Position numbers and translations under genes: made by a program
Notes under the pieces: model-generated
What the model was told of the DNA's origin: nothing
The model's database searches: none
What the model saw: only the letters and a program-made list of their open reading frames with translations
Source of the DNA: a virus
Direction: 5' to 3' (one strand)
Length of the DNA: 60,871 nt
Virus record (IMG/VR): IMGVR_UViG_3300020138_000001
Coordinates: 1-60,871 of that record
In this document: positions 7,147 to 44,393 of the stretch, one piece after another
Numbering within the stretch: position 1 is the stretch's first letter
Layout: each line of letters starts with the position of its first letter

Positions 7147-7812
7147 GTGAGCAGACCCGCTATTCCGAAGATCATGCATAAAATTTGGATCGGCAACCCG
7201 ATGCCGTCCCACCTTCAGGCGAACTGTCTCCGATGGCAGGAAATGCATCCGGACTGGCAGTTCAAGCTGTGGACAGAGCCGCAGATTGACGGCATGCATC
7301 TCCAGAACCGCGCGCTTTACGATCAAGCTGAGAAACTGGTCCCGAGAGACGCCGTCGAACAGTTCCGGGCCGACATCGTTCGGTACGAAGTGTTGCTGGA
7401 GCACGGTGGCATGTATTCCGACGTGGACACGTACCCTCTCCGAAGAATCGATCCGGCCCTTGAGGGTCACGATGAGTTCGCGGCGTACGAAGATCAACGA
7501 TGGATCGGAAACACCTACATCGGCGTCGTTCCGAACCACCCCATCATGCGCACACTCGTTTCGGACTTGCCCGCAAACGTGACAAGGCAGCGCGGAAGTC
7601 GTCCGAACAAGTTGAGCGGACCGCAGTACCTCACTCCGGTGTGGCGAAGGTTCGGCGGATACGTAGCCCCGCAACGTTCGTGGTATCCGTACTCGTACAC
7701 GGACGTCAAGCGCGGCACCGTGCCAGAAGTTTTCGACACGGCAGTTTACGCAGTGCACTCATGGGATCACACGAAGAGAGTCATGGCGGCGCGAGCGGAC
7801 AGGGAGCACTAG
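7147..7812 (+). CDS. Glycosyltransferase with a DXD sugar-binding region (Gly_transf_sug/GT32-like)
   Basis: IPKIMHKIWIG...RADIVRYEVLLEHGGMYSDVDTYPL is the typical N-terminal and DXD signature. Confidence 0.75.
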   Translation: MSRPAIPKIMHKIWIGNPMPSHLQANCLRWQEMHPDWQFKLWTEPQIDGMHLQNRALYDQAEKLVPRDAVEQFRADIVRYEVLLEHGGMYSDVDTYPLRRIDPALEGHDEFAAYEDQRWIGNTYIGVVPNHPIMRTLVSDLPANVTRQRGSRPNKLSGPQYLTPVWRRFGGYVAPQRSWYPYSYTDVKRGTVPEVFDTAVYAVHSWDHTKRVMAARADREH

Positions 7813-9092
7813 TGCTGAGCTTCGATGATCTTTCTAGTCTGGACGGATTGATCTCCAGAGGCGTTGGAGAGCTGTTGCACAACTACGCGGCATGCGTTCC
7901 AGCAGATCAAGCTATCGTAGAGCTGGGATCGTACCGTGGCAAATCCACGTGCTACCTTGCTACCGGTTCGAGTATCGGGCACCGGGCACCAGTGTTCGCC
8001 GTGGATGCCTGGTCTGAGGCTGTGTCGACGTGGCGCAACCGCGTCATGGACCGCCTTCCGTCTCCGGAGTTTGAAGATTTTCAGGCTCAAGTGGCACTCG
8101 CCGGGATGACGGAGATGGTCACTCCGATACAGTCGGATACGGTGAAGGCGTCTGCACAATGGAGCACGGTTGGCGGAAACCGCACAATCGGCCTACTCTA
8201 CATCGACGGCGATCATCATCATGAAGCCGTCATGGCAGATTTCCGAGCGTGGCGGCCATTTCTCGCAGACGATGCACTGATCGTGTTTGACGACTACGAC
8301 ACTCCGACGAATCCCGGAGTCCTGACCGCCGTGCGGCTACTCGAACAGCGGGATGAGATCAGGAATCTAGAAAAACATGAGGGTCGACTAGGTCTATGCA
8401 ACCCGGGGAAGCGACCGCTACGTCTTTCAGCGTCGATCATGGCGCACCCGACTCGGCGAGAATCTGCGGAGGAACTTCAATCGCAGCTTGATCGACCGGC
8501 CCCCATCATCTACGACCAGGAAGCAATTCCATCTGCGGACCCCCGACAGCGCTGGAAGGTTGGTGCTGAGTGCTGGGCGACGCACGAGGATCGTGCTGAT
8601 TGGCACGTAGTGATTCAGGACGACGCGGTGCCTTGCGCGGACATGCTTGCTGGGCTTGAGATGGGATTGAACGTTCTCGGTTCCGAAGGCTTCGTGTCCG
8701 CGTTCGTAGGTCGTGGGAAGCCGTCGCATCATCACGTACGCAAGGCCATTCGGCACGCCCTTGCGAAGGATCATGCCTGGATGTCGCTTCGCTCGCTTGC
8801 GTGGGGTGTAGCCATCGCTGCGCCTACGAGCACCATTCCGGATATGCTGGAATGGTGTTCTCATCCCGAGCGCGAAGATATGAACTACGATAAACGAATT
8901 GGAATCTACTACCGAGATGTTCTCCGCTGGAGAACTTGGCACCCGATTCCAAGTCTCGTAGAGCATCGCGCACTGCCCTCACTCGTTGGGCATGACAGCT
9001 CGGAGAGAGATTCTTTCATGCACTACGAAGGTTCAGCGCTCGACATCGATTGGAACCGAACGCCGCCTTCGGGACTGGCGGTAGGCTTGTGA
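7812..9092 (+). CDS. Class I SAM-dependent methyltransferase (Methyltransf_24-like) fused to a GT-A-like glycosyltransferase domain
   Basis: GTG overlaps the upstream TAG (tagtg). N-terminal LGSYRGKST...LLYIDGDHHHEAV...IVFDDY. The C-terminal domain (about 8424..9092) is a clear paralogue of 9685..10491. Confidence 0.7.
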   Translation: MLSFDDLSSLDGLISRGVGELLHNYAACVPADQAIVELGSYRGKSTCYLATGSSIGHRAPVFAVDAWSEAVSTWRNRVMDRLPSPEFEDFQAQVALAGMTEMVTPIQSDTVKASAQWSTVGGNRTIGLLYIDGDHHHEAVMADFRAWRPFLADDALIVFDDYDTPTNPGVLTAVRLLEQRDEIRNLEKHEGRLGLCNPGKRPLRLSASIMAHPTRRESAEELQSQLDRPAPIIYDQEAIPSADPRQRWKVGAECWATHEDRADWHVVIQDDAVPCADMLAGLEMGLNVLGSEGFVSAFVGRGKPSHHHVRKAIRHALAKDHAWMSLRSLAWGVAIAAPTSTIPDMLEWCSHPEREDMNYDKRIGIYYRDVLRWRTWHPIPSLVEHRALPSLVGHDSSERDSFMHYEGSALDIDWNRTPPSGLAVGL

Positions 9093-12556: not shown

Positions 12557-12972
12557 TCGGTTGGGTAGCGCAAGATTCCGTCTGGCCGCTGTTCGACGGC
12601 TGGTGCGTAGAGCACAGCATAGATCCCGGAGAATTGCCCTTCTCTCGGGCATTGAACCTGATTTACCACTTCGCCGTTCGGAACGCCTCTCAGGAGAAGA
12701 AACGGGAGTTCGATGATGCGATGGCGCGTGCTGTGTCCACCTTCAAGATGCAAGAACTAGCCGCTGCCAGCGTAAACGCTCTGAGAAGCACTGAGAAGGC
12801 CAAAAACGAGGACAGGGTACCTGAAGTACCCGATTCAGATATGAGAAAACGTAAGTCTAAGCTCCCACCGCGCCCTGCCGGGTGGGGCGACGACCTTACC
12901 GTAACTAGACAGTCGCTAGCGGTAGCTCAGTCACTTAAAGTAGGTGGGAACGCACAGAAAAACCTGCGGTAG
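12221..12972 (+). CDS. Tail assembly chaperone G-T fusion produced by a -1 frameshift at 12523..12529
   Basis: The downstream ORF (12553..12972) is in the -1 frame and that frame is open back to the slip site. Confidence 0.65.
12523..12529 (+). promoter_or_regulatory. -1 programmed frameshift slippery heptamer G_GGA_AAA
   Basis: Zero-frame codons are atG GGA AAA ggg, and the -1 frame continues into ORF 12553..12972. Confidence 0.65.
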
Positions 12973-13002
12973 TCTATCGGTAACTAGTCACCGGGGGCGA
13001 TC

Positions 13003-15453
13003 ATGTCGGATGCACTCGACGTCGCATATGTCGAGATCGAGCCGGACTTTTCCACGTTCAACCGAAACGTGGAGTCCGGTGTGCGCGATGCCGCGCGTGA
13101 ACTTGACCGCACGCTCACCGGAACACTGAATGATCTTGAAGGCGAATTCCAGGACTTTGCCGACGCCGCACTATCCGAAGTACAAGATGCGCTCGACCGG
13201 ATAGCAGACGCTGGAGAAGATTCGGCGGACGAGATCGACTCCGCATATGGGGATCTCGAAAACGCTATTCGCGATGCATTCGAAGGTGCGCAGCGAAGTG
13301 CTGAATCAGCCTTTGACGATATCCGTCGTGACGCAGATGTCGCGTTCACGGACATTGAGACTGAAGCCGCCGCCGCCGCCGATGAGATGGAACGGAGCTT
13401 TCAGGAAACCGGCGACACCGTTGGCACCTCCGTTCGCGAAGGTGCCGACGAAGGCAGTGGCGGATTCCTTGACCTGGCAAATAGCGCATTCGATGCCGGT
13501 ACCGACATCCGAGGCGCGATGGTCGGCGCAGCAGGCGCAGCAGGTATCGGTGCGATCGTGGTCGCGGTCGGGGCGGCTATCGATGCCTTCATCGATATGG
13601 GTCGCGAGGCTCTTGACCTTGAAGGCGATATCATCCGGATATCGCAGGCCACAGATTCCGGATTCTCGACGGCTGCTGTCGACGAGTTCAGAGAGTCACT
13701 GCTAGGACTGCAATCCGAGTACGGCATTCTTACTGATGACCTCGTGCCAGCGTTGAACACTGCGATTGTCCAGGGTGTACCCGAGGACAATGTGATCTCG
13801 TTCTTGGAGACGGCAGCACAGTCGGCCGTCGTCACCGGGGAGGATTTGACCGACACTGTTAGCGTCATTAACGGGCTCATGGCGCAGTTCGAAGGCGAGT
13901 TTGCCAACGCAGGAGAAGCCGCCGACTTCCTCACAACCACCCTTGGCAATACCAACGCCGAAGTTACGGACATCGGAGACGTTTTCGGAGAAATCTCCGG
14001 TTTCGCTCGTGATGCTGGTGTTGGCGTTGATGAGGTAAGCGCTGCCTTCGCGGCTATGAGCATCACCGGCCGCGATGCCGGAACCTCCGGCGGGCAGCTT
14101 GCTGCACTCATCGAAGAACTTGGCGACTCGACTACTCCCGTCGCAGAGGCGTTCAATGAGCTGACAGGACAGAGCTTCCAGCAGTTCATAGCCGAAGGCG
14201 GCAACCTTCAGCAGGCAGCACAGATCATCGCAGACGGAGCGGCAGACGCGGGTCAATCCGTCGTAGAACTAGCAGGTTCCGCTGAAACGTCGTCGGCCAT
14301 CCTGGCATTGTCCACCGAGGCGGGAGCTGCACGATACGCTGAAGCACTTGCGGACGTCGACCAGGCCAACGGATTCACTGAACAGAGCTTCGGAGAGCTA
14401 GAGGAGTCCGGAGCACTGGCGTTCAGCCAGCTCGAAGGGTCTTTTGCAACGCTTCGAGATGAAGCAGGCGCTGCTGTCGCTCCGATCGTTGCCGAATTCG
14501 TTGAAGGCTTGATTCCGATCCTGGAAGAGCTTTCGCCTATCGTTCAAGCAGTGGGTGAGGTACTGCTCACTGCGTTCAGTGTTGCGATGGAGTTTCTTTC
14601 GCCGCTGGTTGATCTAGTTCTAGGTCTGTTTGAGGCAATTTCCCCCCTACTCGAAGCATTGACCCCGCTCTGGGAGATTTTGTCACTTATCGGCGAAATC
14701 GTCGGTGGTATCCTCGTACCAATTTTCGATGTCCTTTTTGCTATCCTTACGCCTATTTTCGAGCTAATCGGTCTGCTGCTCACCCCTGCGCTTGAGGTCA
14801 TTCGATTGGCCTTCGAAGGCATCGCGCACGTAATCGAGACGTGGGTCTCTCCAGCCATCGAGTGGCTAGCAGACCAGCTAGGTGAATGGCTCGCACCTCT
14901 GATTGAGTGGGTGTCCGAAAAGGTCGACATTGCGAAGATCGCTTTTCAGCTCATGATCAATTGGGTTCGGGATAACTGGGGCTCAATTACCAGCGTCATC
15001 GGCGACAGCGTGTCATCTATTGGTGACTTCTTCTCGGGACTTGTCGAAACTGCGAAGGGCGCTATCAACACCATCATCGGCGCTTGGAACGCCATCGACT
15101 TCGGATTCAGTATTTCAATCCCCGATTGGGTGCCCGAGATCGGTGGAAGCACATTCGGCATCGATGACATCGTGCCCGACATCCCGTACTTGCAGACCGG
15201 CGGATTCACCACGAATGAAGGGTTGGCCGTACTGCACCCGGATGAGATGGTTCTTCCGCTGACGAATTCAAACGGAATCAACGCTCTTGCTGCGGCGCTC
15301 CAAGAAGCCGGAGCAGGCGGGGGCGAAGATGGGCCCATCCAAGTTGTCGTTCAAATCGGCAATGAGACAATTACACGGATGGTCAACACGGAAGTTACGC
15401 GCAATAATAAGACATTGACACGTCGAGCGCGCACAGGAACGGGAAGGATCTGA
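13003..15453 (+). CDS. Tape measure protein
   Basis: 816 aa, Ala/Gly/Glu-rich with a hydrophobic central segment; it lies directly after the G/T chaperones. Confidence 0.85.
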   Translation: MSDALDVAYVEIEPDFSTFNRNVESGVRDAARELDRTLTGTLNDLEGEFQDFADAALSEVQDALDRIADAGEDSADEIDSAYGDLENAIRDAFEGAQRSAESAFDDIRRDADVAFTDIETEAAAAADEMERSFQETGDTVGTSVREGADEGSGGFLDLANSAFDAGTDIRGAMVGAAGAAGIGAIVVAVGAAIDAFIDMGREALDLEGDIIRISQATDSGFSTAAVDEFRESLLGLQSEYGILTDDLVPALNTAIVQGVPEDNVISFLETAAQSAVVTGEDLTDTVSVINGLMAQFEGEFANAGEAADFLTTTLGNTNAEVTDIGDVFGEISGFARDAGVGVDEVSAAFAAMSITGRDAGTSGGQLAALIEELGDSTTPVAEAFNELTGQSFQQFIAEGGNLQQAAQIIADGAADAGQSVVELAGSAETSSAILALSTEAGAARYAEALADVDQANGFTEQSFGELEESGALAFSQLEGSFATLRDEAGAAVAPIVAEFVEGLIPILEELSPIVQAVGEVLLTAFSVAMEFLSPLVDLVLGLFEAISPLLEALTPLWEILSLIGEIVGGILVPIFDVLFAILTPIFELIGLLLTPALEVIRLAFEGIAHVIETWVSPAIEWLADQLGEWLAPLIEWVSEKVDIAKIAFQLMINWVRDNWGSITSVIGDSVSSIGDFFSGLVETAKGAINTIIGAWNAIDFGFSISIPDWVPEIGGSTFGIDDIVPDIPYLQTGGFTTNEGLAVLHPDEMVLPLTNSNGINALAAALQEAGAGGGEDGPIQVVVQIGNETITRMVNTEVTRNNKTLTRRARTGTGRI

Positions 15454-18489: not shown

Positions 18490-19589
18490 CCGACTTCGCT
18501 CCGATCGTCTCGGGATCGCATACAGCACGATTCCTCGCAATTGCGGTCAATGGGTATCAAGATGGTCTTACGCCGACCGGCACCGAATTGAAGATCATTG
18601 ACGGAGAGGTGGAGCTAGACGCTACGGCTGACATCAGAGGTGCCGGGTCATTGACTGTGGCGGAGCGCTGGCCTACAGTCCGAAACCTCTCACTCGGCGT
18701 ATACGGCACCGAAGTCTACCTAGCTCGGGGCGTTGATCTCGGCGGTGGCGGCGTGCTCTGGGCACCGCTGGGCTACTTCCGAATCTCTGAGGTAGAGCAG
18801 GATGAGGCGGCTCGTGGTCCGCTGTCCTTGACGCTCGAAGATCGCATGTCGACCATCATCGATTCGCGTTTCATCACCCCACGCCAATGGATGCAAGGCA
18901 CGCCAGTTGGTGAAGTGGTCGACGAATTGATCTTGGAAATCTACCCGGATGCCACGATCGTATATGACGACGATTCGTACGATGCTCAGCTTGGGCGGTC
19001 GCTGATCTCCGAAGAGTCTCGATATGAAATGCTGCTCACCATTGCAACCGGGCTCGGTAAGATCGTGTATTGGGACGGCGAAGGTCGATTGGTCTTCGAG
19101 ACCATTCCGGATGAATCCGTGCCCGTCTGGCATGTGAACGCTGGACGCGGAGGCGTCATGGTGGAATCTGATCGATCGTTGTCCCGAGAACGCGTGTACA
19201 ACGCCGTTGTTGTCTCAGGGGAAGGGGCGGACGAACTCGCGCCAGTGCACGCCGTTGCCTACGACGCGCAGGAGTCGAGCCCGACGTTCTTCGGTGGTCC
19301 GTTTGGCCGTGTTCCACGATTCTATTCGTCTCCGTTCATCACGACGCCGCTGCAAGCTCGGAACGCCGCTGTAAACCTGCTGAAACAATCGCTAGGCGCT
19401 CCGTACGACGTCGGCCTCTCTGCCGTACCTAATCCGGCATTGCAGCCGTATCACGTCATCAGGGTGACCTACAATGACGGATCAAGAGAGCTGCACGTTG
19501 TCGAAAAGGTATCCATTCCGATGACTGTCGACAGCGCTATGAGCGTGTCCACTCGGCAATCAACGCTCGTGCATGTGGGAGTGATCTAA
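18477..19589 (+). CDS. Minor tail protein (baseplate/hub-like)
   Basis: 370 aa, translationally coupled within the tail operon. Confidence 0.55.
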   Translation: MATVADFAPIVSGSHTARFLAIAVNGYQDGLTPTGTELKIIDGEVELDATADIRGAGSLTVAERWPTVRNLSLGVYGTEVYLARGVDLGGGGVLWAPLGYFRISEVEQDEAARGPLSLTLEDRMSTIIDSRFITPRQWMQGTPVGEVVDELILEIYPDATIVYDDDSYDAQLGRSLISEESRYEMLLTIATGLGKIVYWDGEGRLVFETIPDESVPVWHVNAGRGGVMVESDRSLSRERVYNAVVVSGEGADELAPVHAVAYDAQESSPTFFGGPFGRVPRFYSSPFITTPLQARNAAVNLLKQSLGAPYDVGLSAVPNPALQPYHVIRVTYNDGSRELHVVEKVSIPMTVDSAMSVSTRQSTLVHVGVI

Positions 19590-21841: not shown

Positions 21842-22083
21842 ACCAGCCTCCGTGCCCGTGGCGCGTTCGCGAATCGCTGAGCAATGCGCTCCGCTCCACG
21901 CCTGGAGCGGCACGAGCGCGAGTCGATCGGCTCGGTTCCCCAATCTGCGGATGCAGGTTGCACCCACAGGGAGACTTTCGCCCGTGGGGGAGCCACGAGG
22001 ATGAATCGGTACCGTGCCGTCTCAGCGCGGAACGTGTTCATACTGTCGGCGTGTTTGGTCCAGTGCAGCCTAGGGTGTTTCAT
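21838..22083 (-). CDS. Hypothetical basic protein (81 aa)
   Basis: ATGA overlaps at both ends (22080..22083 and 21838..21841) couple it to its neighbours. Confidence 0.45.
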   Translation of the reverse strand: MKHPRLHWTKHADSMNTFRAETARYRFILVAPPRAKVSLWVQPASADWGTEPIDSRSCRSRRGAERIAQRFANAPRARRLV

Positions 22084-23903
22084 TCATTTCCTTTCGTCCG
22101 ATTCTTCGCGTTTTCAAGTACTGTTCTCCGGTACCCGCGCGCCTTCTCTCCCGTTCCGATAGCAAAGGCGTTCGGCTCCGGAGCGACCCCAGATGCTCTC
22201 ATACGAGCATGCACTTCAGCGTCCGTGACGCCAAGAGCGTTGGATAGCCGCGCTGTCGATACGCCGTTGTAGCCTTCAGAGAGCTGCAACGCCACATCGA
22301 GCACGGACTGCTCTCGGGTCTGCGCGGCAATCTCGCGACGCCACGCCTTCCGCGCGGGAAGAGCTTTTACGTGTTCTTTTGTCATATACCATACCCGCAC
22401 GGGATTCGGAGTTCTATCCTCCCCCTGAACGCGCACGAGCGCCCATCCGCCTTTCTGCAAATCCTCCGCATGCCACCCTTTCAGGGTCGCATCCTCTCCG
22501 AGTACGTTCCGGGTTTCTACCGGCGACGGCACTGCAAGTGCGATCTGTGTCGTGAGCTGCATTGAGATAGCGGAGTCAAGTCCCCGGCCGCTACCCGTTA
22601 CTGTCGGTTTCTGCGTCGCCCAGTAGAGCACGATCTCGGCTGATCTTGCGCGTCGAGCGATGGAGCGGAGACCGGTGATGCAGTCCTCCACCTCCGAGAT
22701 GAGTTCAGCGCCCTCATCGATGGCGACGACGATTCTCGGGCGCTCTTCGGTGGGAACCCACTTATCGAGCGATTGCGCTCGCATGATTGATTCGCGCTCG
22801 CGCATCTCTTCGACCAGCTCAGCAACGAAGTGCTCAATGCCGTCAGGCTCAGACTCAACACGCGCAGTGTGCGACCACAACGCGCCTTCGACCTTCAAAT
22901 CGATGATGCCTAGTACCGTGTGCTTGCGCCGGAGCGCTTTCGCGAAAAGTACCCGGAGCGCTACCGACTTACCCGCGCCGGACATCCCCGCTACAAGCAC
23001 ACGATCCGTGTCGTCTACGTCGACCACTTCGCCCGTGTCGGCGTCGAGTCCGATTCCCCTCCGCTCGGGTGTCCAGGTGAGATCGAGTTCCCTCACTCTT
23101 GTGCGGATACGCAGCAACGCCCGGTCGGCCGTACCTCCGGGATTGATCTGGGTACGGACATCGTCTGGCACCGCGAGCAGCGCTCGCACCTGGTCAATCT
23201 GCATCCCGAGTTTCGCTGGCGTCCACTGCCCCCGGAATCCGATCGGAACGAGCAGCCCGGACTCATCGATCACCGGATGGTCCGTGATGATGTCCTGAAG
23301 CTTCCGTTCAGACGCGTAGTCTTCCCAAGAGGCAATGCGGTGAATGATCTCCGATTCCACGGCAGTGGGTTTCAATCCGCTCGCCTTCAGCCTCTTCGCA
23401 GGCAGCTTGATCTTTCGCTCATGATCAGGAGCGTCACCGCTCATTCGCTCACCACCCCGCTCATCGGAGCGTTGCACCCATCCATCCCACGCTAGGTAGA
23501 TGTAGGCAGCGGGCCAAACGCTCATCCATCCGGGGTCACCGCTCATGAGCGCTACTGGCGGATAGACGATGAGCGCGCATGGAGCGCTCACGACCGCGAT
23601 GGATCGGAGCGTTCGCACTCCGAGCGCTCGTGACTTCAGTTCGAGATCGGTCATGGGACGCTCGGGCGCTCTTGGCGGTCGCTGTGAGCGCTTCGGCCTG
23701 CGGGCACGAGCGCGCGCTTCCCGAGCGGTACGGACTTCGCGTGAGCGCTCTTCACGAGCGCGCATGAGTTCTTCGAGCCCTTCGGCACGCGCCCAATCGC
23801 GAGCGCTCATAGCGTGGCGGCGCGCGCCTCGCAGAAACAACTTCCACGAAGCGCGCGCCAAACGCGCCGGAGCGCGCATTTCCTTCTCGTTGTCGTCAGC
23901 CAC
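22080..23903 (-). CDS. FtsK/SpoIIIE/TraB-like DNA translocase with N-terminal transmembrane segments and a C-terminal HTH-like tail
   Basis: Walker A VLVAGMSGAGKSVAL and Walker B RIVVAIDEGAEL. Two N-terminal hydrophobic helices. C-terminus VSTARLSNALGVTDAEVHARMRASGV. Confidence 0.8.
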   Translation of the reverse strand: MADDNEKEMRAPARLARASWKLFLRGARRHAMSARDWARAEGLEELMRAREERSREVRTAREARARARRPKRSQRPPRAPERPMTDLELKSRALGVRTLRSIAVVSAPCALIVYPPVALMSGDPGWMSVWPAAYIYLAWDGWVQRSDERGGERMSGDAPDHERKIKLPAKRLKASGLKPTAVESEIIHRIASWEDYASERKLQDIITDHPVIDESGLLVPIGFRGQWTPAKLGMQIDQVRALLAVPDDVRTQINPGGTADRALLRIRTRVRELDLTWTPERRGIGLDADTGEVVDVDDTDRVLVAGMSGAGKSVALRVLFAKALRRKHTVLGIIDLKVEGALWSHTARVESEPDGIEHFVAELVEEMRERESIMRAQSLDKWVPTEERPRIVVAIDEGAELISEVEDCITGLRSIARRARSAEIVLYWATQKPTVTGSGRGLDSAISMQLTTQIALAVPSPVETRNVLGEDATLKGWHAEDLQKGGWALVRVQGEDRTPNPVRVWYMTKEHVKALPARKAWRREIAAQTREQSVLDVALQLSEGYNGVSTARLSNALGVTDAEVHARMRASGVAPEPNAFAIGTGEKARGYRRTVLENAKNRTKGNE

Positions 23904-24354
23904 CGAACAGCTCTCCCACCGATACCCAGACCCACAGCGTCAATCCGCCGTAGATGCCCTCTCGAACGAAGCCACCCACGAAGCCGCCCGCGCCGTGCGC
24001 AGCGATCGGGGCGATGATGAGGGCCCAAACGGCCGCAATGTTGTACGTGGCGTCAATGAGCAGGTCAGCAATGGTCCCGACCAGTGCCAGCAGGCAAATG
24101 ACGCCCATGACCGTTGACGCAGGCGCACCGATCCCGCTGAGGATGCCGCTGATACCGCCGGAGATGTTGGCGGACCAGGCGGAGGCATACCACATGAGCG
24201 ACCCCATGATGGCGATTGGCAAGACCACCCACGGTGACCAGTTGTTTCCTTCAAGTCTCCGGTTGAGGTACCACGCTGCAACGAAGAACAGCAGCGCGAT
24301 CCACTCGACTCCGGGGATTTGTACTACGTTGTCGTCGGTTATGTACCGGTCCAT
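23896..24354 (-). CDS. Polytopic membrane protein (about 4 TM)
   Basis: Start at MDRYITDD after gaaaggataggg. Long hydrophobic, Gly-rich helices. Confidence 0.6.
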   Translation of the reverse strand: MDRYITDDNVVQIPGVEWIALLFFVAAWYLNRRLEGNNWSPWVVLPIAIMGSLMWYASAWSANISGGISGILSGIGAPASTVMGVICLLALVGTIADLLIDATYNIAAVWALIIAPIAAHGAGGFVGGFVREGIYGGLTLWVWVSVGELFGG

Positions 24355-24380
24355 CCCTATCCTTTCGTCTACATCTCTAT

Positions 24381-24397
24381 CTATTTCATTATAGCTC
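24381..24397 (-). promoter_or_regulatory. Promoter-like box with a perfect TATAAT (minus strand: gagctataatgaaatag)
   Basis: An AT-rich island in GC-rich DNA, about 30-40 nt upstream of the 24354 start. Confidence 0.45.
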
Positions 24398-24401
24398 ACC
24401 T

Positions 24402-24588
24402 GGCACGGCACACCGGGACCGGCCCCTGGTAAACGCTGTGACCTGCGAAAACGCTGCTGACGATTCGATTCGGCACACCGTGCCAATCGTGCCAGTCGGG
24501 TGTTTTCGCAGGTCATCGTGGGTTCCGGGGTGTGCCGCGCTCAGTTCGGCCGTGCCAGAGCGGCACACCCACTGTTCCAGGTGTGCCG
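24402..24588. promoter_or_regulatory. Operator-like region: five CGGCACACC/GGTGTGCCG boxes plus a 13-bp inverted repeat
   Basis: Boxes at 24406, 24471 and 24561 (+) and at 24529 and 24580 (-). Inverted repeat gacctgcgaaaac (24440..24452) / gttttcgcaggtc (24502..24514). Confidence 0.5.
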
Positions 24589-24599
24589 CTCATGGCGTC

Positions 24600-25823
24600 C
24601 TAGGAGCGCAGCGCCTGACGGACCGGCGAGACCCACTTACGGCAGTACGACTCGGACTTGCTGAACGCTTCGGCAAGCTGCGCGCCGGTGGGGAGCGTGC
24701 CGTTCGTCCGCGCGTAGATCGTCGTCCACTCGCGCGCATCCTCCGGGCCCGCAAAGAACCGGGCGATGATCGATTCCATGTCGCTGTCGGTCGGAGCGCT
24801 CACGGTCGTGACAGAAGCGCTCGCTTCGATAGCGGGAGCGTCGTCGGCAGGAGCGATCTCTTCGTGAGCGCTCATCTCGACGGCGGGAGCGGGAGGAGCG
24901 CTCACAGGCCGAGCGACGTTCACACGAGCGCTTCGAGCGATCTTCGGAGCGCGCTCATCCCACGGGTTCATGTGAGCGACCGCTTCAGGGGCGAGCGCTC
25001 GCGCTCCAACATACCGAGCGGCAACGCGCGTCTGAATACGAGCGCGCACTTCGGGAGTCAGGATTCCGAGCGCGTCAGCAGCAGCCCAAGCGCGATCGAA
25101 AAGCCGCGAGCGGAGCGGCCGGAGCAGTCGAACACTCATGTTCGCGGCGTACCCGTGATTCACAATCCGGGTGATGAGCTGTTCAGTGAGCAGCGCATTG
25201 GCGTCCTGCGAGGTGGCCTTGCCGCGCTTCATGCGGTACCAGGTGAGCAGCGCAGAAGGCTTGTGCTCACGGCCGAAGGTGATGACCACGTGCCAGGCCA
25301 CGGCCGCCAGGAGCGGCCACAGCGCGAAGATGATGTTCTCTCCGCCCCACCAGGCAATGCAGCCCATGAGGGAGGCCATCGACCACACGCCGACCTCATA
25401 CCAGTTGAAGCCGGAGCCCTTCGTCATGTGCCACAGCGAGAGCGCTCCGAGAATCGCCAGGAACGCTTCGAAGACGACGACGACGCTAATCGCCGTATCG
25501 ATCGAGTGCAGTCCGACGCGGTTCATCGCCGCGATCGTGGCATGAGCGCTCAGGTTCGTGGCGGCGAGCGCTACGAGCGCTACAGCGCTCATGAGCGCGA
25601 ATCGAAGCCGAGCGTTGTAGCGCTCACCGGATTCGCGGCGCTCACGCTTGCGCTCGGCGCGCGCCTTCCACTCCGGAGCCTTGAGCGCTGCCCAAGCGGC
25701 GGCCTTCTCCTTGGCGCGCGCTCGCGCGCCGCGCGTGGTGGCTACAACGCTCACGATGAGCGCGAGCGCTCCAAGAGCGCTCATTGCGATGATCGCTCCA
25801 GCGGTGTTGGGTTCGAGTTCCAT
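24600..25823 (-). CDS. Polytopic membrane protein with a cytoplasmic C-terminal HTH-like region (possibly DUF2637-like)
   Basis: Start MELEPNTAG after gaggag. The upstream extension is rejected because it would overlap 25919..26266 and the terminator. Several TM helices, then an Ala/Pro-rich linker and ...GAQLAEAFSKSESYCRKWV. Confidence 0.55.
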   Translation of the reverse strand: MELEPNTAGAIIAMSALGALALIVSVVATTRGARARAKEKAAAWAALKAPEWKARAERKRERRESGERYNARLRFALMSAVALVALAATNLSAHATIAAMNRVGLHSIDTAISVVVVFEAFLAILGALSLWHMTKGSGFNWYEVGVWSMASLMGCIAWWGGENIIFALWPLLAAVAWHVVITFGREHKPSALLTWYRMKRGKATSQDANALLTEQLITRIVNHGYAANMSVRLLRPLRSRLFDRAWAAADALGILTPEVRARIQTRVAARYVGARALAPEAVAHMNPWDERAPKIARSARVNVARPVSAPPAPAVEMSAHEEIAPADDAPAIEASASVTTVSAPTDSDMESIIARFFAGPEDAREWTTIYARTNGTLPTGAQLAEAFSKSESYCRKWVSPVRQALRS

Positions 25824-25869
25824 CGGTAATCTCCTCATCTTGTCGTCGTGAGCGAATTCTATCAGACAA

Positions 25870-25906
25870 CGAAAAAGAGCGCTCATCCGGGGGGATGAGC
25901 GCTCTT
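25870..25906 (-). terminator. Rho-independent terminator (minus strand) built from two GAGCGCTCAT motif copies
   Basis: Minus strand: aagagcgctcatcc-cccc-ggatgagcgctctt followed by tttc, giving a 14-bp perfect stem. Confidence 0.7.
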
Positions 25907-25918
25907 CATGAGCGATCG

Positions 25919-26266
25919 CTACACCATGATCGATACCGTGAGAGCGATTATGATTGCGCAGGTTATGAAGTTCTTGAGCGCGTCCATCGGCTGGTACTTC
26001 TTGGGAGCATCGTGCATGTGCGGCAACCGCAGTACCCACCCTCCCCACATCACCGCAGGGATGCCGATCCACCCGACCACATCCCAGGCGCTCTCCGGGG
26101 CCCACGTGAGCGCTACGCACACTGTGATCGTCCCGTACAGGAACGCTCCCGTAGCGATCTCGTTTCGCCGGTTATCGCCTTTGGGCGTCTGTCCGATCAC
26201 TACGAATCCGTACGCCCCTGACAGGAGCATTAGGAAAATCAGTATCAATTGCCAGGCCAGCGCCAT
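25919..26266 (-). CDS. Membrane protein (about 4 TM)
   Basis: 115 aa, hydrophobic throughout. ATG after acgacgaaagga. It lies just downstream of the tRNA array. Confidence 0.6.
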   Translation of the reverse strand: MALAWQLILIFLMLLSGAYGFVVIGQTPKGDNRRNEIATGAFLYGTITVCVALTWAPESAWDVVGWIGIPAVMWGGWVLRLPHMHDAPKKYQPMDALKNFITCAIIIALTVSIMV

Positions 26267-26293
26267 TACTCATCCTTTCGTCGTAGGTCATAG

Positions 26294-26364
26294 AGGCGTG
26301 AACGGGAGTCGAACCCGTCTAACTGGATTTGCAGTCCAGTACCTAACCGCTCGGTCATCACGCC
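26294..26364 (-). tRNA. tRNA-Cys (GCA)
   Basis: Hand fold: acceptor ggcgtga/tcacgcc, T-loop ttcgact, anticodon loop ct-GCA-aa. No encoded CCA. Confidence 0.8.
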
Positions 26365-26483
26365 GTAACGCCGGTAGGCAGGGTTCCCGTGGTCTCGTCA
26401 ACGCCTGGCCGGGCTCTAAGATCGCGGGGCCTTGAGGCTCCGGCGGGCGGCCCCGGGGAGTCTAGAACTCCGGAGCCTTACCG

Positions 26484-26556
26484 TGGACCGTGTCGGATTC
26501 GAACCGACAACCCTCTGATTGCAAATCAGACGCTCTACCATTGGAGCTAACAGCCC
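26484..26556 (-). tRNA. tRNA-Ala (UGC)
   Basis: Acceptor gggctgt/acggtcc with G3:U70, T-loop ttcgaat, anticodon loop tt-TGC-aa. Confidence 0.8.
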
Positions 26557-26645
26557 GTGCGCCGCATGGGAGGACATGGGAGCGACATCCCCACGGGTCG
26601 GAACTTACCCCCGACCATACACACCGTGCACAGCGTGCGTATCCG

Positions 26646-26718
26646 TGCACCGAGAAGGACTCGAACCTTCGACCAACGGTGTGTAAAACCGCCGCTCTTG
26701 CCGCTGAGCTACCGGTGC
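26646..26718 (-). tRNA. tRNA-Val (UAC)
   Basis: Acceptor gcaccgg/tcggtgc, T-loop ttcgagt, anticodon loop tt-TAC-ac. Confidence 0.8.
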
Positions 26719-26719
26719 G

Positions 26720-26792
26720 TGCAGCATCCGGGAATCGAACCCGGGTCTATGAGCCTGAAGCTCATCGCATTGCCCATTCATGCTGATGCCGC
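26720..26792 (-). tRNA. tRNA with anticodon UCA (opal-suppressor-like or UGA-reading)
   Basis: 73 nt, class I. Acceptor gcggcat/atgctgc, D stem gcat/atgc, perfect anticodon stem atgag/ctcat, loop ct-TCA-gg, T arm ccggg-ttcgatt-cccgg, A73. Confidence 0.65.
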
Positions 26793-26793
26793 G

Positions 26794-26868
26794 TAGCGAG
26801 CCCGAGATTTGAACTCGGAACCACGATCGTATCAGGATCGCGCTCTAACCAAATTGAGCTAACTCGCC
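26794..26868 (-). tRNA. tRNA-Ile (GAU)
   Basis: Anticodon stem cgatc/gatcg, loop ct-GAT-ac, T-loop ttcaaat. Confidence 0.8.
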
Positions 26869-26869
26869 G

Positions 26870-26943
26870 TACCTCGCGCAGGATTCGAACCCGCGACCGC
26901 AGAGGGTAGAAGCCTCCGGCTCTGTCCACTGAGCTAGCGAGGT
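26870..26943 (-). tRNA. tRNA-Arg (UCU)
   Basis: Perfect acceptor acctcgc/gcgaggt, loop ct-TCT-ac, T-loop ttcgaat. Confidence 0.75.
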
Positions 26944-27012
26944 GTGCGGTCCGCCCGTCGCCTACGAAACGAACCGGGCGGACCTTCATTCCTGCAACTC
27001 CCGAAGGAGCTG

Positions 27013-39252: not shown

Positions 39253-40191
39253 ATGGCTACTGTGACCTATGAGAGTGTCCGCGCGGCGTCTCCAGGGGCC
39301 GTCGCTTACGCCTGCACCAGGCTCGGTTTCCGGGTGTTCCCGCTGCGGTCGGACACGCTGACGCCGAGCTTCACCGGGTGGCCCGAACGCGCCACCGCCG
39401 ACCTCAACCAGGTTCGAGCGTGGTGGACCGGTGAGTACGCCTCCAGCGGCGTCGGCATCGCCACCGGACCCGAATCGGGCACGTGGGTGCTCGACATCGA
39501 CGTCAAAGAGGTCGACGGCTTCGCGTCGCTCAGGGAGCTGTGCGCTCGCCATCACTGCGGTGTCGAGCCCTTCGTGAACACGATGGTGGTGCGCACGCCT
39601 AGCGGGGGCGCTCACGTGTATTTCCGGTGGAACGAAGCCGCTGGAACGGAAGGCGGCATTCGCAACTCGGCTAAAGCGCTCATGCCCGGTCTGGACGTGC
39701 GCGGCATCCGAGGATACACGCGCGCTCCAGGGCTCTTCGGCTACGCGCTCGTTGAGCGCTCGGGCGTTCGCAGTGTGGCGATGAGCGATGCTCCGGACTG
39801 GCTCACACCGCTGTGCAAGCGGCGGCGCTCCAGCGCTCGGGACGCCCCCACGAACGCCGATGTCCGCGCGCGGTTGAGTGGCGGAAGCGCCGACATGGCG
39901 CGCGCTCAAGCGGCGCACGCAGTGCGAATGCTCCGCAACTGCCCTCCGGGAACGCGCAATGACACGCTCAACCGAACCGCGTTCAAGCTCGGTACGCTGT
40001 CTGCGCTGCACGGATACCCATCGGAGGATGCGGCGCGAGAGTTCTGTTTGGCAGCGCTCAGCGCCGCCGGAGCGAATGACAGTCTGGACCAGCAAACGCG
40101 CACGTTCGCGTCAGGTTGGGAAGCGGGGTGGATAGCGGAATCCGGTACGAAGATGACCGCCGACCGCCACTCGTCCCGCACGGAAGGGTGA
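39253..40191 (+). CDS. Bifunctional primase-polymerase (prim-pol) domain protein
   Basis: GFRVFPLRSD...GW and the catalytic VLDIDVKE; 312 aa. Confidence 0.7.
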   Translation: MATVTYESVRAASPGAVAYACTRLGFRVFPLRSDTLTPSFTGWPERATADLNQVRAWWTGEYASSGVGIATGPESGTWVLDIDVKEVDGFASLRELCARHHCGVEPFVNTMVVRTPSGGAHVYFRWNEAAGTEGGIRNSAKALMPGLDVRGIRGYTRAPGLFGYALVERSGVRSVAMSDAPDWLTPLCKRRRSSARDAPTNADVRARLSGGSADMARAQAAHAVRMLRNCPPGTRNDTLNRTAFKLGTLSALHGYPSEDAAREFCLAALSAAGANDSLDQQTRTFASGWEAGWIAESGTKMTADRHSSRTEG

Positions 40192-41852: not shown

Positions 41853-42135
41853 TGTGCAGGGGTCGAGCGGACCCCTGCACAGAACCCCTGCACACGGCTA
41901 CAACGGGTTAAAGTCTAGTAACACAGTCGGGAATAGGGGCGAAAAGTGTGCAGGGATGTGTGCAGGGATGTGTGCAGGGGTCTTGCAGGGGTGGGTAAGG
42001 GCTCTGAGCTGGAGTGTGCAGGGATTGCAGGGGTAATCTCTTAGGTCTGTGTTACATGAGAAAAAATTAGAACATATGTACGTGTAAATAGAATGTGTAG
42101 CTGAAAATGCAACCGACCCCTGCACAGTCTGCACA
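41853..42135. repeat. Iteron array (TGTGCAGGG[G/A] and variants, both orientations) flanking an AT-rich segment; putative replication origin
   Basis: Copies at 41853(+), 41872(-), 41885(-), 41947, 41959, 41971, 41982, 42015, 42024(+), 42117(-) and 42128(-, partial). The AT-rich stretch is 42050..42110. Confidence 0.6.
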
Positions 42136-42192
42136 GCAGGCGCACAGCGGCTCGAAATCTGGCTACACAACGTGACATCCGGAGGAGATGGG

Positions 42193-42723
42193 ATGAGCGA
42201 CGAGACGGACGAAGGAGACGCGCCGCTGCGGCCGTTCTCGGGCGAGCTGAACGTGAGTCCGTGGGATGCGATCCTCAGCGAGGTTCGGCGGTCGGCGTAC
42301 CGGGCCGAGTGGATTGATGAGCGCATCGACATCGACGCGCGGCGGGAACGCCAGCTCATGGAGACGAACGGCGCTGGGTTTGAAGACATGCTCAAGTTCG
42401 AGACGGCCGTGCGGATACGAAGCGATGAGCTGCGCCAGTGGATCGAGCAGAGCCGCAAGGAGCGCGCCCACATGGTCAAAACGGCCGCTGACGCGGTCCG
42501 AGCGGGTCTCAGTGAGCGGTATATCGAGTCGGTGCGCGTTGAGGCTCGGATGATCGCGCAGGCGCTCACACGAGCGCTCGACGCCGCCGAGCTGAGCGAT
42601 GGGCAGCGCGCTCGCGCCAGCGAGGCGCTGCGGGAGGCGCTGAGCGACATGGGGCCGGTTCTGGCCGACCGCCAGGACTCCATGTCTCGCGTGGTCCAGG
42701 TCCGTCCGGAGATCGAGCGTTAA
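42193..42723 (+). CDS. Hypothetical alpha-helical protein (176 aa)
   Basis: ATG after ggaggag; Arg/Glu/Ala-rich helical sequence. Confidence 0.5.
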   Translation: MSDETDEGDAPLRPFSGELNVSPWDAILSEVRRSAYRAEWIDERIDIDARRERQLMETNGAGFEDMLKFETAVRIRSDELRQWIEQSRKERAHMVKTAADAVRAGLSERYIESVRVEARMIAQALTRALDAAELSDGQRARASEALREALSDMGPVLADRQDSMSRVVQVRPEIER

Positions 42724-42931
42724 GGGGTCTGAGAGCAACGCTGACGGACGAACACCCTGTTCCCTATACCCGAGTACCCCTGAAACGGCACAGAGGCTCT
42801 GAGGGGGTTTTGCAGTGGGGAGCGCGAGGCGGGTTGAGCGTGGTCGGCTCAAGTTCGGCCGGGAACGGGGAAAGCTTTCGAGAAGTGTGGTTCCCGCAAG
42901 TAATCTTTGGGCGTGTCTTCTCAGAGCACGC

Positions 42932-42962
42932 AAAAGGGGCGAACCCGTAGGTTCGCCCCTTG
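42932..42962. terminator. Bidirectional terminator between convergent genes
   Basis: aaaa-aggggcgaacc-cgta-ggttcgcccct-t; 11-bp stem. Confidence 0.7.
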
Positions 42963-43040
42963 TCTAACCGCTCATCCCCGCCTGCGGGCAGGGTGGCCGA
43001 TGCTGGCCCCCAGGGCAGCACGTGCTCATGCGATCACCTC

Positions 43041-43244
43041 CTATCCGAACATGCCGGTGTCGATCACGTCATCGCCACCGTGGTCACGTCGCTGATCGCG
43101 AGCGTGCCGCTTGCCCTTCTTGTTTGCGGCCTGGTACACAGCCTTGGCTTTGTCGCGGTCCCGCTTCTCGCGCTGGCTGGTGTAAGGATTCTTACCCTTC
43201 ACACCCTTCATGACCTTGTCGAAGTCATCATTCTTTTTGCCCAT
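43041..43244 (-). CDS. Small, highly basic protein (67 aa)
   Basis: Lys/Arg/Asp-rich; TAATG coupling to the upstream gene. Confidence 0.5.
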   Translation of the reverse strand: MGKKNDDFDKVMKGVKGKNPYTSQREKRDRDKAKAVYQAANKKGKRHARDQRRDHGGDDVIDTGMFG

Positions 43245-43411
43245 TACTTTCCTTTCATCACCTGATCGGCTGCTTTGATCACAGCATCGAGTCCTTTGAT
43301 CCTGCGCTTGTCCGAGCTGCTGAGCTTCTTACCCGCGTCGCGGTAGATCGCTGCGCGCTCGGCAATGGCACTGGCACGAGCCTTCTTGGCTTCGTTCTTA
43401 GTGATTTTCAT
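43244..43411 (-). CDS. Small basic protein (55 aa)
   Basis: Start MKITKNEAKK after gacgaaaggacgacgg. The longer upstream extension is rejected. Confidence 0.5.
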   Translation of the reverse strand: MKITKNEAKKARASAIAERAAIYRDAGKKLSSSDKRRIKGLDAVIKAADQVMKGK

Positions 43412-43435
43412 CCGTCGTCCTTTCGTCTGTGTGCA

Positions 43436-43454
43436 GCAACTATAACATAATGAT
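43436..43454 (-). promoter_or_regulatory. Promoter-like box (minus strand atcattatgttatagttgc)
   Basis: Shares ATTATGTTATA with the box at 58503..58519. Confidence 0.4.
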
Positions 43455-43584
43455 TCAGCGGCCCCGACAGGGGGTACCCCTAAACCGGTTTCGCAGCGAC
43501 CCCGGGGCGTCGGCGGGGGCACCCCCTTCCGGCCCGGGTCCGAAATTCCACCGCGATATGAAAGCGCTTTCCAAACATTGCCGA

Positions 43585-43605
43585 GAAAAGCCGCCTCTCG
43601 GCGGC
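43585..43605 (-). terminator. Rho-independent terminator (minus strand)
   Basis: Minus strand: gccgcc-gaga-ggcggc followed by ttttctcgg. Confidence 0.6.
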
Positions 43606-43610
43606 CTCCC

Positions 43611-43877
43611 CTACCTCCCGAGGTATTCGCGTCCAGCGTCGGTCAGCGCCCACACGATCAGCTCGACGCTGACCGTGTGCCCGCTGGGGTAGGTGTAGCT
43701 CATGGTGCGGGCGGTCTGCACGCTTTCGATGAGTCCTGCCTTCACAAGAACGCGGGCGGTGGTCGAGCGGATGTACAGCAGTTCGTCATCGGCGTGGCTC
43801 CAGTTGTTCGCAACCTTGCCAGGGTTGTCGGCGATGGTCTGGAGTGCGGTGGTCTGGGCCTTCGTGAGCTTCTTCAT
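43611..43877 (-). CDS. Small protein, possibly winged-helix (88 aa)
   Basis: Start at MKKLTKAQ (alternative at 43886) after gacgacagg. Confidence 0.5.
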   Translation of the reverse strand: MKKLTKAQTTALQTIADNPGKVANNWSHADDELLYIRSTTARVLVKAGLIESVQTARTMSYTYPSGHTVSVELIVWALTDAGREYLGR

Positions 43878-44005
43878 GATCGTCATCCTGTCGTCTCGTC
43901 GTCTGTTCCCCAAGCTTAGGGCCGTCGTCGACCGGCGTCAACCCCCTGAGCAGAATATTTTTTAGAATGTTCGGGAGATGCGGGAATCGCTTACCAATCA
44001 TTCCA

Positions 44006-44034
44006 AACAAAAACCCCAGCTCTGCGAGCCGGGG
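44006..44034 (-). terminator. Rho-independent terminator (minus strand)
   Basis: Minus strand: ccccggctc-gca-gagctgggg followed by tttttgtttgg. Confidence 0.7.
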
Positions 44035-44048
44035 TCTCCTGTCATCGA

Positions 44049-44279: not shown

Positions 44280-44393
44280 CGTTCTCGTCCTATCATCTAT
44301 CGTCGTGGGCGCTTGCCCTGGTGGCGTCAACAGTACCGGCCCCTGCACGAGGGTGCAAGGGCCGGACCAAATATTTTTCAATTATCTTCCGAC

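Follow-up and report, generated by a model that had tools for sequence, protein, structure and literature searches.

Why should a short palindrome crowd into the coding sequence of two neighbouring phage genes, in every reading frame and far above its usual density? The question is raised by the phage DNA in IMG/VR virus record IMGVR_UViG_3300020138_000001 (positions 1 to 60,871; the whole stretch of 60,871 nucleotides that we analysed, referred to below as the window), in which copies of the hexamer AGCGCT swarm over about 2.6 kb of minus-strand genes encoding a 407-amino-acid (aa) membrane protein, g407, and the N-terminal part of a TraB/Tra-family DNA translocase. A first-pass annotation of this DNA had proposed that the swarm is a cis-acting recognition array for the translocase. 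Our analysis points to a different reading, which we favour tentatively and rate as coming close to, without reaching, probable: that the swarm serves, at the level of DNA, as an array of sites for a protein that binds a specific sequence, probably as a dimer. The sites, the selection that keeps them at the nucleotide level, their conservation and a shift of the motif in one lineage are established by the comparisons presented here. The features that carry the argument are as follows.

23545 to 23880, no strand assigned: swarm block 1, codons ~8-120 of the translocase gene, its Arg/Ala-rich N-terminal region.
24792 to 25002, no strand assigned: swarm block 2a, g407 codons ~274-343, a predicted disordered, hypervariable linker, with 6 AGCGCT.
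25440 to 25784, no strand assigned: swarm block 2b, g407 codons ~15-128, transmembrane segment 1 (TM1) and a basic Arg/Ala-rich helix, with 9 AGCGCT.
25874 to 25919, minus strand: spacer terminator, two motif copies forming an intrinsic-terminator hairpin at 25874-25907, with a degenerate third copy upstream.
24600 to 25823, minus strand: g407, the 407-aa membrane protein.
22080 to 23903, minus strand: the translocase, TraB/Tra-family (FtsK/SpoIIIE-like), with Arg/Ala-rich and transmembrane (TM) segments at its N terminus and a winged helix-turn-helix (wHTH) at its C terminus.

All 24 AGCGCT start positions counted by hand in the first-pass annotation, from 23548 to 26109, are exact, and the roughly ten-fold local density claimed with them is borne out: the 2.57-kb interval has 24 copies, or 9.3 per kb, and the other 58.3 kb have 47, or 0.8 per kb, an excess of about 11.6-fold. 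The window as a whole holds 71 copies where dinucleotide shuffles give 22.3 +/- 4.2, and GAGCGCTC, which is its own reverse complement, occurs 19 times (3.0 +/- 1.9 expected), with 14 of these inside 23582-25904 (2.3 kb). Read on the minus (coding) strand the sites take the form (A/G)TGAGCGCTC(A/G), with AGCGCTC in 21 of 24 and a 5' G in 17 of 24. An unbiased scan of 6- and 8-mers ranked the swarm region first for local clustering, with GAGCGC at the top among 6-mers and AGCGCTCA and GAGCGCTC among 8-mers, and the enriched unit is broader than AGCGCT: 27 of the 41 window copies of G[A/C]GCGC[G/T]C lie in 23-26 kb, and ATGAGCGCTCAT at up to two mismatches is found 12 times in the swarm region against 4 in the other 58 kb. 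The AGCGCT copies of block 1 span 23548-23807, with 11 copies of G[AC]GCGC[GT]C in kb 23-24. Within each block there is typically one copy per 10-55 bp, with no helical or other periodic spacing among the sites. The g407 gene is less fully covered than had been thought; instead of spreading over nearly the whole of 24600-25823, the sites fall in codons ~15-128 and ~274-343, and there are none in 25001-25440 or in the C-terminal domain.

Two codon nulls were used to ask what the encoded proteins alone would produce: 2000 synonymous shuffles within each gene, and a resampling that keeps the protein and draws codons from twelve other window genes. In the within-gene shuffles the 407-aa gene has 15 AGCGCT against 1.9 +/- 1.2 and the first 190 codons of the translocase have 6 against 0.96, with 0 of 2000 shuffles reaching the observed count in either case; with genome-usage codons, 21 AGCGCT are observed against 1.4 +/- 1.1, and 12 copies of GAGCGCTC against 0.4. 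The observed counts thus stand 8- to 30-fold above the two nulls, and because shuffling codons does not reproduce the density, both nulls falling far short, the constraint acts on nucleotides. All three codon phases are used (10, 3 and 9 sites, with 2 further sites intergenic), the codon examples given earlier being right, and distances between sites modulo 3 are even (171/170/160). Together with the excess over both nulls, this upholds the earlier proposal of a DNA-level constraint rather than a peptide repeat; a peptide repeat or codon bias as the cause is ruled out by the within-gene shuffles and the genome-wide-usage resampling. The imprint on codon choice is specific, with the swarm region differing from the rest of the window in Ser AGC (43% vs 16%), Ala GCT (34% vs 20%), Leu CTC (57% vs 31%) and Arg CGC (46% vs 29%), while the codons for Gly, Val, Thr, Pro, Glu and Asp are unshifted there and the rest of the translocase gene is normal.

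Related phages carry the feature too. The g407 protein has more than 141 metagenomic homologues at 58-73% amino-acid identity on contigs of ~60 kb, and we compared more than 35 phages, represented by 74 related loci (several of them overlapping stretches of the same contigs), together with two loci of the window's own lineage. The swarm stands in the same place in all 74 related loci and in both window-lineage loci, with the synteny of the gene block kept. The first-pass annotation had raised the prospect that related phages might lack the motif cluster; AGCGCT is indeed lacking in the relatives, but the cluster itself is kept in all of them. Their swarm core is GCGCGC, of which ~3.3 kb contain 45-73 copies while flanks of up to 18 kb contain 0-21, and GCGCGCGC occurs 13-31 times in their swarm (17-31 in full-length regions) against 0-5 outside in most, the flanks of loci L045 and L046 having 9. 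All 48 copies of G[AC]GCGC[GT]C in locus L017 fall within 2.5 kb, and its other 18.7 kb are free of them. In locus L044 the genome-codon null gives 9.9 +/- 3.3 GCGCGC where 59 are observed, and the Arg codon CGC makes up 90% of Arg codons in the swarm region vs 31% elsewhere. The relatives' copies form two blocks, in g407 and at the translocase 5' end, with a gap across the spacer and the small intervening membrane-protein gene g153; block 1 is present in every relative, and many site columns of block 2b are common to at least 25 of 33 relatives.

When k-mers were ranked against synonymous shuffles, the window gave (G)TGAGCGCTC(A) and the relatives TGAGCGCGCA(T/C) and TGCGCGCGCA. The two motifs are half-site variants of one palindrome, built from the half-sites (A)TGMGC and GCKCA(T), in which M is mostly A in the window to give (A/G)TGAGCGCTCA(T/C). 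In codon alignments the sites lie at homologous codons at which the window differs synonymously, AGC GCG C becoming AGC GCT C, CGC GCG becoming CGC GCT, and GCG CGC GCG CTC becoming GCG CGA GCG CTC through a change of CGC to CGA. The window lineage has moved its half-site from C to A by synonymous changes. In the hypervariable linker both peptide and length vary among relatives, yet motif copies persist there in two frames. The non-coding DNA follows the same pattern: the 70-bp spacer before the g407 promoter has three direct TGAGCGCGCA copies in relatives, plus one inverted copy that completes the terminator, and two to three motif copies in the window, and the terminator stem sequence matches the motif type of each lineage. 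The shift is one of degree: A-type half-sites make up a fraction of 0.67 in the window, two relatives have 0.42 and 0.34, and all others have 0.12-0.28. Only three loci, at least 96% identical to one another, are of the AGCGCT type, namely the window, L001 and L047. That the window lineage avoids GCGCGC or CGCG throughout its genome was rejected as the cause of the switch, given 33 GCGCGC outside the swarm and 18 inside it vs ~7-13 expected.

What kind of function might such an array serve? Under our preferred reading the candidate sites are palindromes of 8-12 bp, such as GAGCGCTC and GAGCGCGC, numbering 27 copies in the window and 40-60 in relatives. They are placed in the spacer and promoter of g407, in those stretches of g407 that tolerate them, which are its basic helix and its disordered linker, and over the opening ~120 codons of the translocase. 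An array of this size would load many copies of the binder to form a large nucleoprotein patch on a plasmid-like transfer module. The patch may serve one or both of two roles: holding this region of the phage genome at the membrane beside the translocase, and keeping two potentially toxic membrane genes under tight control, much like the kil-kor systems of Streptomyces plasmids. An operator array, which the first-pass annotation had listed as an alternative, comes closer to this reading than a translocase array does, with the qualification that binding, the identity of the binder and the function are what we infer.

The most economical candidate for the binder would be the C-terminal helix-turn-helix (HTH)-like domain of g407 itself, carried on a 70-residue flexible linker from its membrane anchor; the alternative candidate is a host protein. 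AlphaFold2 models g407 with a long helix at residues 7-65, in which TM1 continues as the basic helix, with more helices that include other TM segments, a disordered linker at 274-344 (predicted local distance difference test score, pLDDT, below 50) and a confident four-helix domain at aa 346-406 that is weakly HTH-like. The protein's own last helices are variable among relatives, and the C-terminal helix variants SYCRKW, GNCRKW, GHVARW and GHAGKW roughly track the fraction of A-type half-sites. This co-variation, together with the fact that g407 carries most of the sites in its own gene, suggests its C-terminal domain as the swarm binder.

Several observations weigh against this reading. No sites lie in g153 or in the TM3-4 and C-terminal parts of g407, and the gaps, which fit placement where the protein tolerates it, also fit a property of Arg/Ala-rich segments. 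The g407 C-terminal domain has weak local Foldseek matches to the LexA and PadR wHTH folds (E 3.9, probability 0.66) and no Pfam match, and the protein as a whole belongs to no Pfam or PHROG family and returns nothing significant in a whole-chain Foldseek search. The link between helix variant and half-site is confounded with phylogeny and amounts to essentially one clear switch. In each of the three lineages tested, the translocase mRNA folds more stably over its first 390 nt than its synonymous shuffles do (z ~-4.2), so that the motif may have a role at the RNA level. Finally, a (GC)n tract encodes (Ala-Arg)n in every frame, and part of the relatives' GCGCGC load could come from the origin of the Arg/Ala-rich segments.

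Among known systems, the closest precedent belongs to a module of this type: on plasmid pIJ101, SpdA2 recognises a 12-bp palindrome (sps) that lies within its own coding sequence, where sps imposes a recurring peptide motif and can be removed experimentally by synonymous changes (PMC4170104). The swarm shares with it a short palindrome (~12 bp) within coding DNA of a TraB-type transfer module, a likeness of site type, and differs in having 27-60 copies over two genes and a spacer as opposed to 1-3 sps, and in that binding is demonstrated there and only proposed here. No SpdA homologue was identified in the window, no direct comparison with SpdA2 having been made. By analogy, the swarm would act most like a palindromic operator or centromere array. 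The stoperators of Cluster A mycobacteriophages (PMC6550527) are likewise dozens of sites in transcribed actinophage regions with a lineage-divergent consensus, there serving as repressor sites. Unlike the swarm, with its palindromic, local and intragenic sites, they are 13-14-mers without symmetry that follow the direction of transcription, lie in short gaps between genes all over the genome and belong to temperate phages with a known repressor; no integrase or repressor was found among the open reading frames (ORFs) of the window that we scanned (~59, with Pfam or PHROGs).

In the ParB-parS, Noc-NBS (Noc-binding site) and KorB-OB (KorB operator) systems, many intragenic palindromes nucleate a large complex, which in the case of Noc ties DNA to the membrane. 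Their sites are 13-16 bp long and lie over tens of kb or whole replicons, in contrast to the one per 10-55 bp seen here, and no ParB or ParA gene was found among the ~59 ORFs, the only trace being a sub-threshold ParB_C match in an unrelated protein. The swarm differs from all of these known cases in its density, in being coding in all frames, in having reshaped amino-acid composition and in its lineage-wide synonymous rewrite. We found no description of such a feature in the literature searched, the only sequence-level match being GTGAGCGCTCAC, for which the papers retrieved deal with lac operators and LacI looping; we take it to be the 12 bp at the centre of the ideal (symmetric) lac operator, and it would suit a dimeric HTH protein. 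This sequence is present at window sites such as 24864-24875, 24894-24905 and 28351-28401.

The reading first proposed for this DNA, in which the swarm would be a cis recognition array of the clt, TRS, KOPS or SRS kind (cis-acting locus of transfer, TraB recognition sequences, FtsK-orienting polar sequences and SpoIIIE recognition sequences, respectively), read by the translocase winged helix so as to load or guide the pump on phage DNA, now seems doubtful, although the translocase is as expected. It carries Pfam FtsK_SpoIIIE (PF01580) and phrog_17958, and its assignment as a TraB/Tra-type ATPase adjacent to the swarm is confirmed by an alignment of 369 aa with pIJ101 Tra (38% identity, E 5e-61), a closer match than to Streptomyces phage FtsK-like proteins (~35%). 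Its best plasmid matches are small Streptomyces plasmids, and its distant homologues, which are encoded on a plasmid contig with a GntR-TraB-SpdB module and within an integrated actinomycete integrative and conjugative element (AICE), carry MarR_2 or HTH_IclR domains. The HTH-like C-terminal tail noted earlier also holds up, the last ~75 residues modelling as a winged helix (AlphaFold2 pLDDT 85-93) whose top Foldseek matches are all MarR, ArsR or Rex wHTH folds (probability up to 0.94, E at least 0.07). The presence of a genuine TraB/Tra relative with a wHTH, the overlap of the 8-bp swarm core with the translocase gene 5' end, and the fact that clt loci adjoin or overlap tra genes and are built of repeated 7-9-bp units (PMC3583192, PMC4447253) all speak for such an array.

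The wHTH itself, however, does not follow the motif. Its recognition helix, (I/V)(T/S/A)DxEVHxRMR, does not differ between lineages with the AGCGCT motif and those with GCGCGC, and across 226 near-invariant translocase columns the 8 changes of the window lineage show no enrichment in the wHTH beyond chance. The only wHTH change specific to that lineage, N584T, lies in the otherwise invariant wing GNGEKARGYRR, which counts in favour of a recognition array; co-variation of the wHTH with motif type, resting on this one non-significant change, was rejected. The motif is moreover a palindrome without polarity, whereas KOPS and SRS are polar (asymmetric) 8-bp motifs; these are read by a translocase wHTH and share the 8-bp length that prompted the original analogy, but they are strand-skewed and chromosome-wide where the swarm motif is symmetric and local. 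The TraB-clt/TRS systems of pSVH1, pJV1, pWTY27 and pIJ101 likewise join a translocase of this family with a wHTH to short repeats beside tra, but clt and TRS loci are 50-200 bp long, largely non-coding and made of 3-9 direct 7-9-bp repeats (PMC3583192, PMC4447253); the AGCGCT swarm is palindromic, ~90% coding and ten times longer, with its 27-60 copies spread over 2.6 kb of coding DNA, and its motif differs between lineages while the wHTH stays.

A better candidate for what the translocase reads lies in the non-coding spacer directly upstream of its operon.

24402 to 24588, no strand assigned: CGGCACACC / GGTGTGCCG array, repeats together with GGCACGGTGTGCC palindromes in the non-coding spacer 24358-24599.
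24388 to 24393, minus strand: TATAAT -10 hexamer, putative promoter of the g153-translocase operon, read from the sequence.

Five of the six exact window copies of CGGCACACC fall within 183 bp, and 8 of the 28 window copies of GGCACRSY within ~185 bp; the array ends with GTGCCGTGCC just upstream of TATAAT, and it is invariant in every one of the 17 family members examined. The central GGCAC palindrome of the spacer is enclosed by a long inverted repeat, TGACCTGCGAAAAC ... GTTTTCGCAGGTCA (24424-24452 / 24502-24530), which relatives keep. The clt of pJV1 consists of nine CCGCACA[C/G][C/G] repeats, and that of pWTY27 of four TGACACC with inverted repeats in 175 bp adjoining traA (PMC3583192). Short, non-coding and made of repeats beside tra, the CGGCACACC array fits this kind of locus and looks like the repeats of pJV1 and pWTY27, which would make it a clt-like or operator candidate for the translocase operon. 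By the same analogy, an invariant wHTH and an invariant non-coding array are the natural candidates for a translocase/clt (or operator) pair; and if the translocase pairs naturally with the CGGCACACC array, the swarm needs another reader. By the features tested the swarm belongs to neither the clt/TRS nor the KOPS/SRS class, while the CGGCACACC array may be a member of the clt class. Distant TraB modules also speak against a recognition array: Streptomyces phage YDN12 (locus L043) has six direct GGAACGG repeats in 124 bp (19166-19289) right upstream of its FtsK-like gene, whose protein is 36% identical, and unbiased k-mer scans found no palindrome swarm in YDN12, in the GntR-TraB-SpdB plasmid contig (L080) or in the AICE (L081). 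Canonical plasmid and AICE relatives of the translocase are without one, although no local-window palindrome scan was run on the small plasmids pIJ101 and pTSC1.

Two further observations concern these modules. The YDN12 gene preceding the FtsK-like gene encodes a 346-aa protein with TM segments and a C-terminal HTH-like tail. The Streptomyces AICE (L081) has nine CTGCGTCA in 200 bp of non-coding DNA (12894-13094) between its replication and xis/int genes, a typical short repeat array of such elements.

Combining the two arrays leads to an extended model that we regard as unlikely as it stands. The swarm would here be a centromere-like landing pad, at which the g407 HTH domain captures the genome at 27-60 palindromes, at the membrane, while the CGGCACACC array loads the pump, for a virion-independent spread of the phage. 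Naked phage DNA would be pushed plasmid-style into neighbouring cells or hyphal compartments by a phage that otherwise looks lytic, and binder and sites would co-evolve by recoding their own genes.

No great likelihood attaches, either, to the motif acting in RNA or in transient single-stranded DNA, where structured mRNAs would throttle translation, stabilise transcripts or terminate transcription. Two motif copies do form an intrinsic terminator, as had been noted, at 25874-25907 with 15 pairs (exact inverted arms of 14 nt each) followed by a T-run. The half-site hairpin reported at 28351-28401 on the minus strand is also real: it reads GTCCGTGAGCGC...GCGCTCACGGAC, lies between tRNA-Asp and tRNA-Glu, outside the swarm, and has 12-bp arms with the half-sites GTGAGCGC / GCGCTCAC. 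Some intragenic neighbours pair past the core (25575-25590 with 25610-25625, for example, over 16 nt at 94%), and the translocase 5' end has the folding excess given above, at z = -4.2 in each of three lineages. Set against these, any excess stability varies from one segment of g407 to another (z -0.1 to -3.2), with none in the motif-rich linker segment from L044 (z = -0.14), the three direct spacer copies upstream of the terminator have no pairing partner, and no Rfam family is found in the region. Extra folding is expected of any palindrome-rich DNA, and this evidence does not discriminate.

It is less likely still that the swarm has no function and is a by-product of Arg/Ala-rich segments that grew from (GC)n tracts by slippage or short-patch conversion, with the window lineage having since drifted. 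Such tracts, yielding (Ala-Arg)n in all frames, may explain how the Arg/Ala-rich segments arose, the region being 19-20% Ala and 11% Arg vs 9-11% and 6-7% elsewhere, and within-gene shuffles of the relatives already contain ~20 GCGCGC vs 30-45 observed. The kept flanks TGA...TCA / CAT are not (GC)n, however, and the Arg CGC usage of 90% vs 31% elsewhere is kept across lineages differing at 27-42% of residues. Motif copies also occur in non-coding DNA, the window's AGCGCT count is 11- to 15-fold above both codon nulls, and the half-site change is coordinated at many homologous positions.

A binder from the host, such as a segregation or nucleoid factor or a LacI-type regulator, for which the sites would be a tether or decoy and the motif shift a sign of a different host, is similarly improbable. 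No phage protein co-varies cleanly with the motif, GTGAGCGCTCAC is presumably the core of an ideal LacI-type operator, and the AGCGCT-type lineage (the window, L001 and L047), which includes a contig from a goat-jejunum metagenome-assembled genome (MAG), may differ in habitat or host. The binning of a 2.3-kb contig is unreliable, however, and sites so tightly tied to one module point to a partner that the module itself encodes. The contig in question (L047, JAFRJC010000047.1) is 2.3 kb long, 96% identical to the window translocase and binned in an Eggerthellaceae MAG; it was the sole match when bacterial genomes were queried for a host, and either hints at habitat and host or is a phage fragment binned in error, evidence too slight for naming a host. 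That the sites are methyltransferase or restriction targets in a densely modified patch is very improbable: the swarm cores match what we take to be type II sites (AfeI/Eco47III AGCGCT, HaeII RGCGCY, BssHII GCGCGC, HhaI GCGC), GCGC being common to both lineage variants, but the enrichment is confined to 2.6 kb with outside GCGCGC at ~0.4-1.2 per kb in window and relatives alike, flanks past the hexamer are kept, and the ~59 ORFs include no DNA methyltransferase, their sole methyltransferase domain being a Methyltransf_24 joined to a glycosyltransferase in the structural module.

If the sites are bound, as our preferred reading holds, the swarm would rank with the densest cases known of a DNA code superimposed on genes for proteins, one that reshapes the codon usage and amino-acid composition of two genes and is kept in more than 35 phages. 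It would also offer a natural experiment in the joint change of motif and coding sequence, one lineage having recoded ~20 sites synonymously. Notice is further drawn to a widespread family of actinophages, ~60 kb in genome size, in which a TraB-type conjugative translocase comes together with membrane partners and a clt-like array; the older idea that Spd/Tra functions serve phages in moving DNA from cell to cell (PMC4447253) thereby becomes directly testable. There are practical consequences as well, since annotation pipelines and codon-based analyses would misread the swarm region and LacI in E. coli cloning hosts may bind the GTGAGCGCTCAC sites of cloned fragments.

The swarm lies in a conserved block of minus-strand genes running from g115 through the terminator and a -10-like element to g407, then a 240-bp spacer, g153 and the translocase, with two small ORFs, a DUF6011 protein and WhiB on the 3' side of the translocase. 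The members of this block that have not yet been listed are the following.

25919 to 26266, minus strand: g115, a 115-aa membrane protein, first in the conserved block, with one AGCGCT at 26109.
25856 to 25864, minus strand: extended -10-like TGaTAGAAT, a putative g407 promoter right after the terminator, read from the sequence.
23896 to 24357, minus strand: g153, a 153-aa small membrane protein (ORF, translation) whose gene overlaps the translocase start.

The g153 gene has 0 AGCGCT and 0 GCGCTC, and its synteny is kept in relatives. Relatives have TGcTATAAT or similar at the g407 -10 position, and the hexamer at 24388..24393 is kept in them as gtgTATAAT; a simple sigma-70 scan gave no call at either place. 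The position of g407 beside a TraB-type translocase recalls SpdB2, a protein of 409 aa with four TM helices that adjoins TraB (PMC4447253), but the two are alike only in size (407 vs 409 aa), TM helices, a helical N-terminal region and place by the translocase. Homology of g407 to SpdB, HTH_SpdB_C or DUF2637 was rejected (BLASTP E 1.8 vs pIJ101 SpdB; hhalign probability <1% vs one HTH_SpdB_C and one DUF2637 protein), and tblastn with the 407-aa protein gave no phage or plasmid match.

The ~61 kb of the window make up an entire actinophage genome, circularly permuted, for which megablast found no close phage relative in GenBank. Its structural and lysis genes encode a portal, major head protein, tape measure, tail proteins, terminase and endolysin, and its replication genes a DNA polymerase A, SNF2 helicase, PD-(D/E)XK nuclease, Prim-Pol and D5-type helicase; WhiB, a dCTP deaminase and a TROVE/Ro60 protein are also encoded. 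Immediately upstream of the block is a minus-strand array of 28 tRNA genes (26293-29931), similar to one in relatives, in which a tRNA with anticodon TCA at 26719-26792 was called tRNA-SeC by ARAGORN and is possibly opal-suppressor-like. ARAGORN also called a permuted tmRNA at 26022-26576, overlapping g115 and a tRNA-Cys, which is probably a false positive, with no tmRNA match in Rfam. A tRNA-like element at 45657-45730, called tRNA-Asn(att) by ARAGORN and below the Rfam tRNA threshold, lies just upstream of the TROVE/Ro60 gene (45814-47523) and may be the tRNA-like part of a Y-RNA-type partner. In the structural module, a 530-aa protein (7500-9092) combines a Methyltransf_24 domain with a glycosyltransferase-like part, which may point to virion glycosylation or methylation and not to DNA modification. 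Weak secondary clusters of the swarm motif occur in the Prim-Pol gene (4 AGCGCT, 39675-40058) and at 42460-42613 (3 G[AC]GCGC[GT]C), neither of which was seen in the one relative fragment at hand. A second and unrelated local motif cluster is formed by CCCCTGCA or its complement, 8 of whose 9 window copies lie inside 41855-44340 (2.5 kb).

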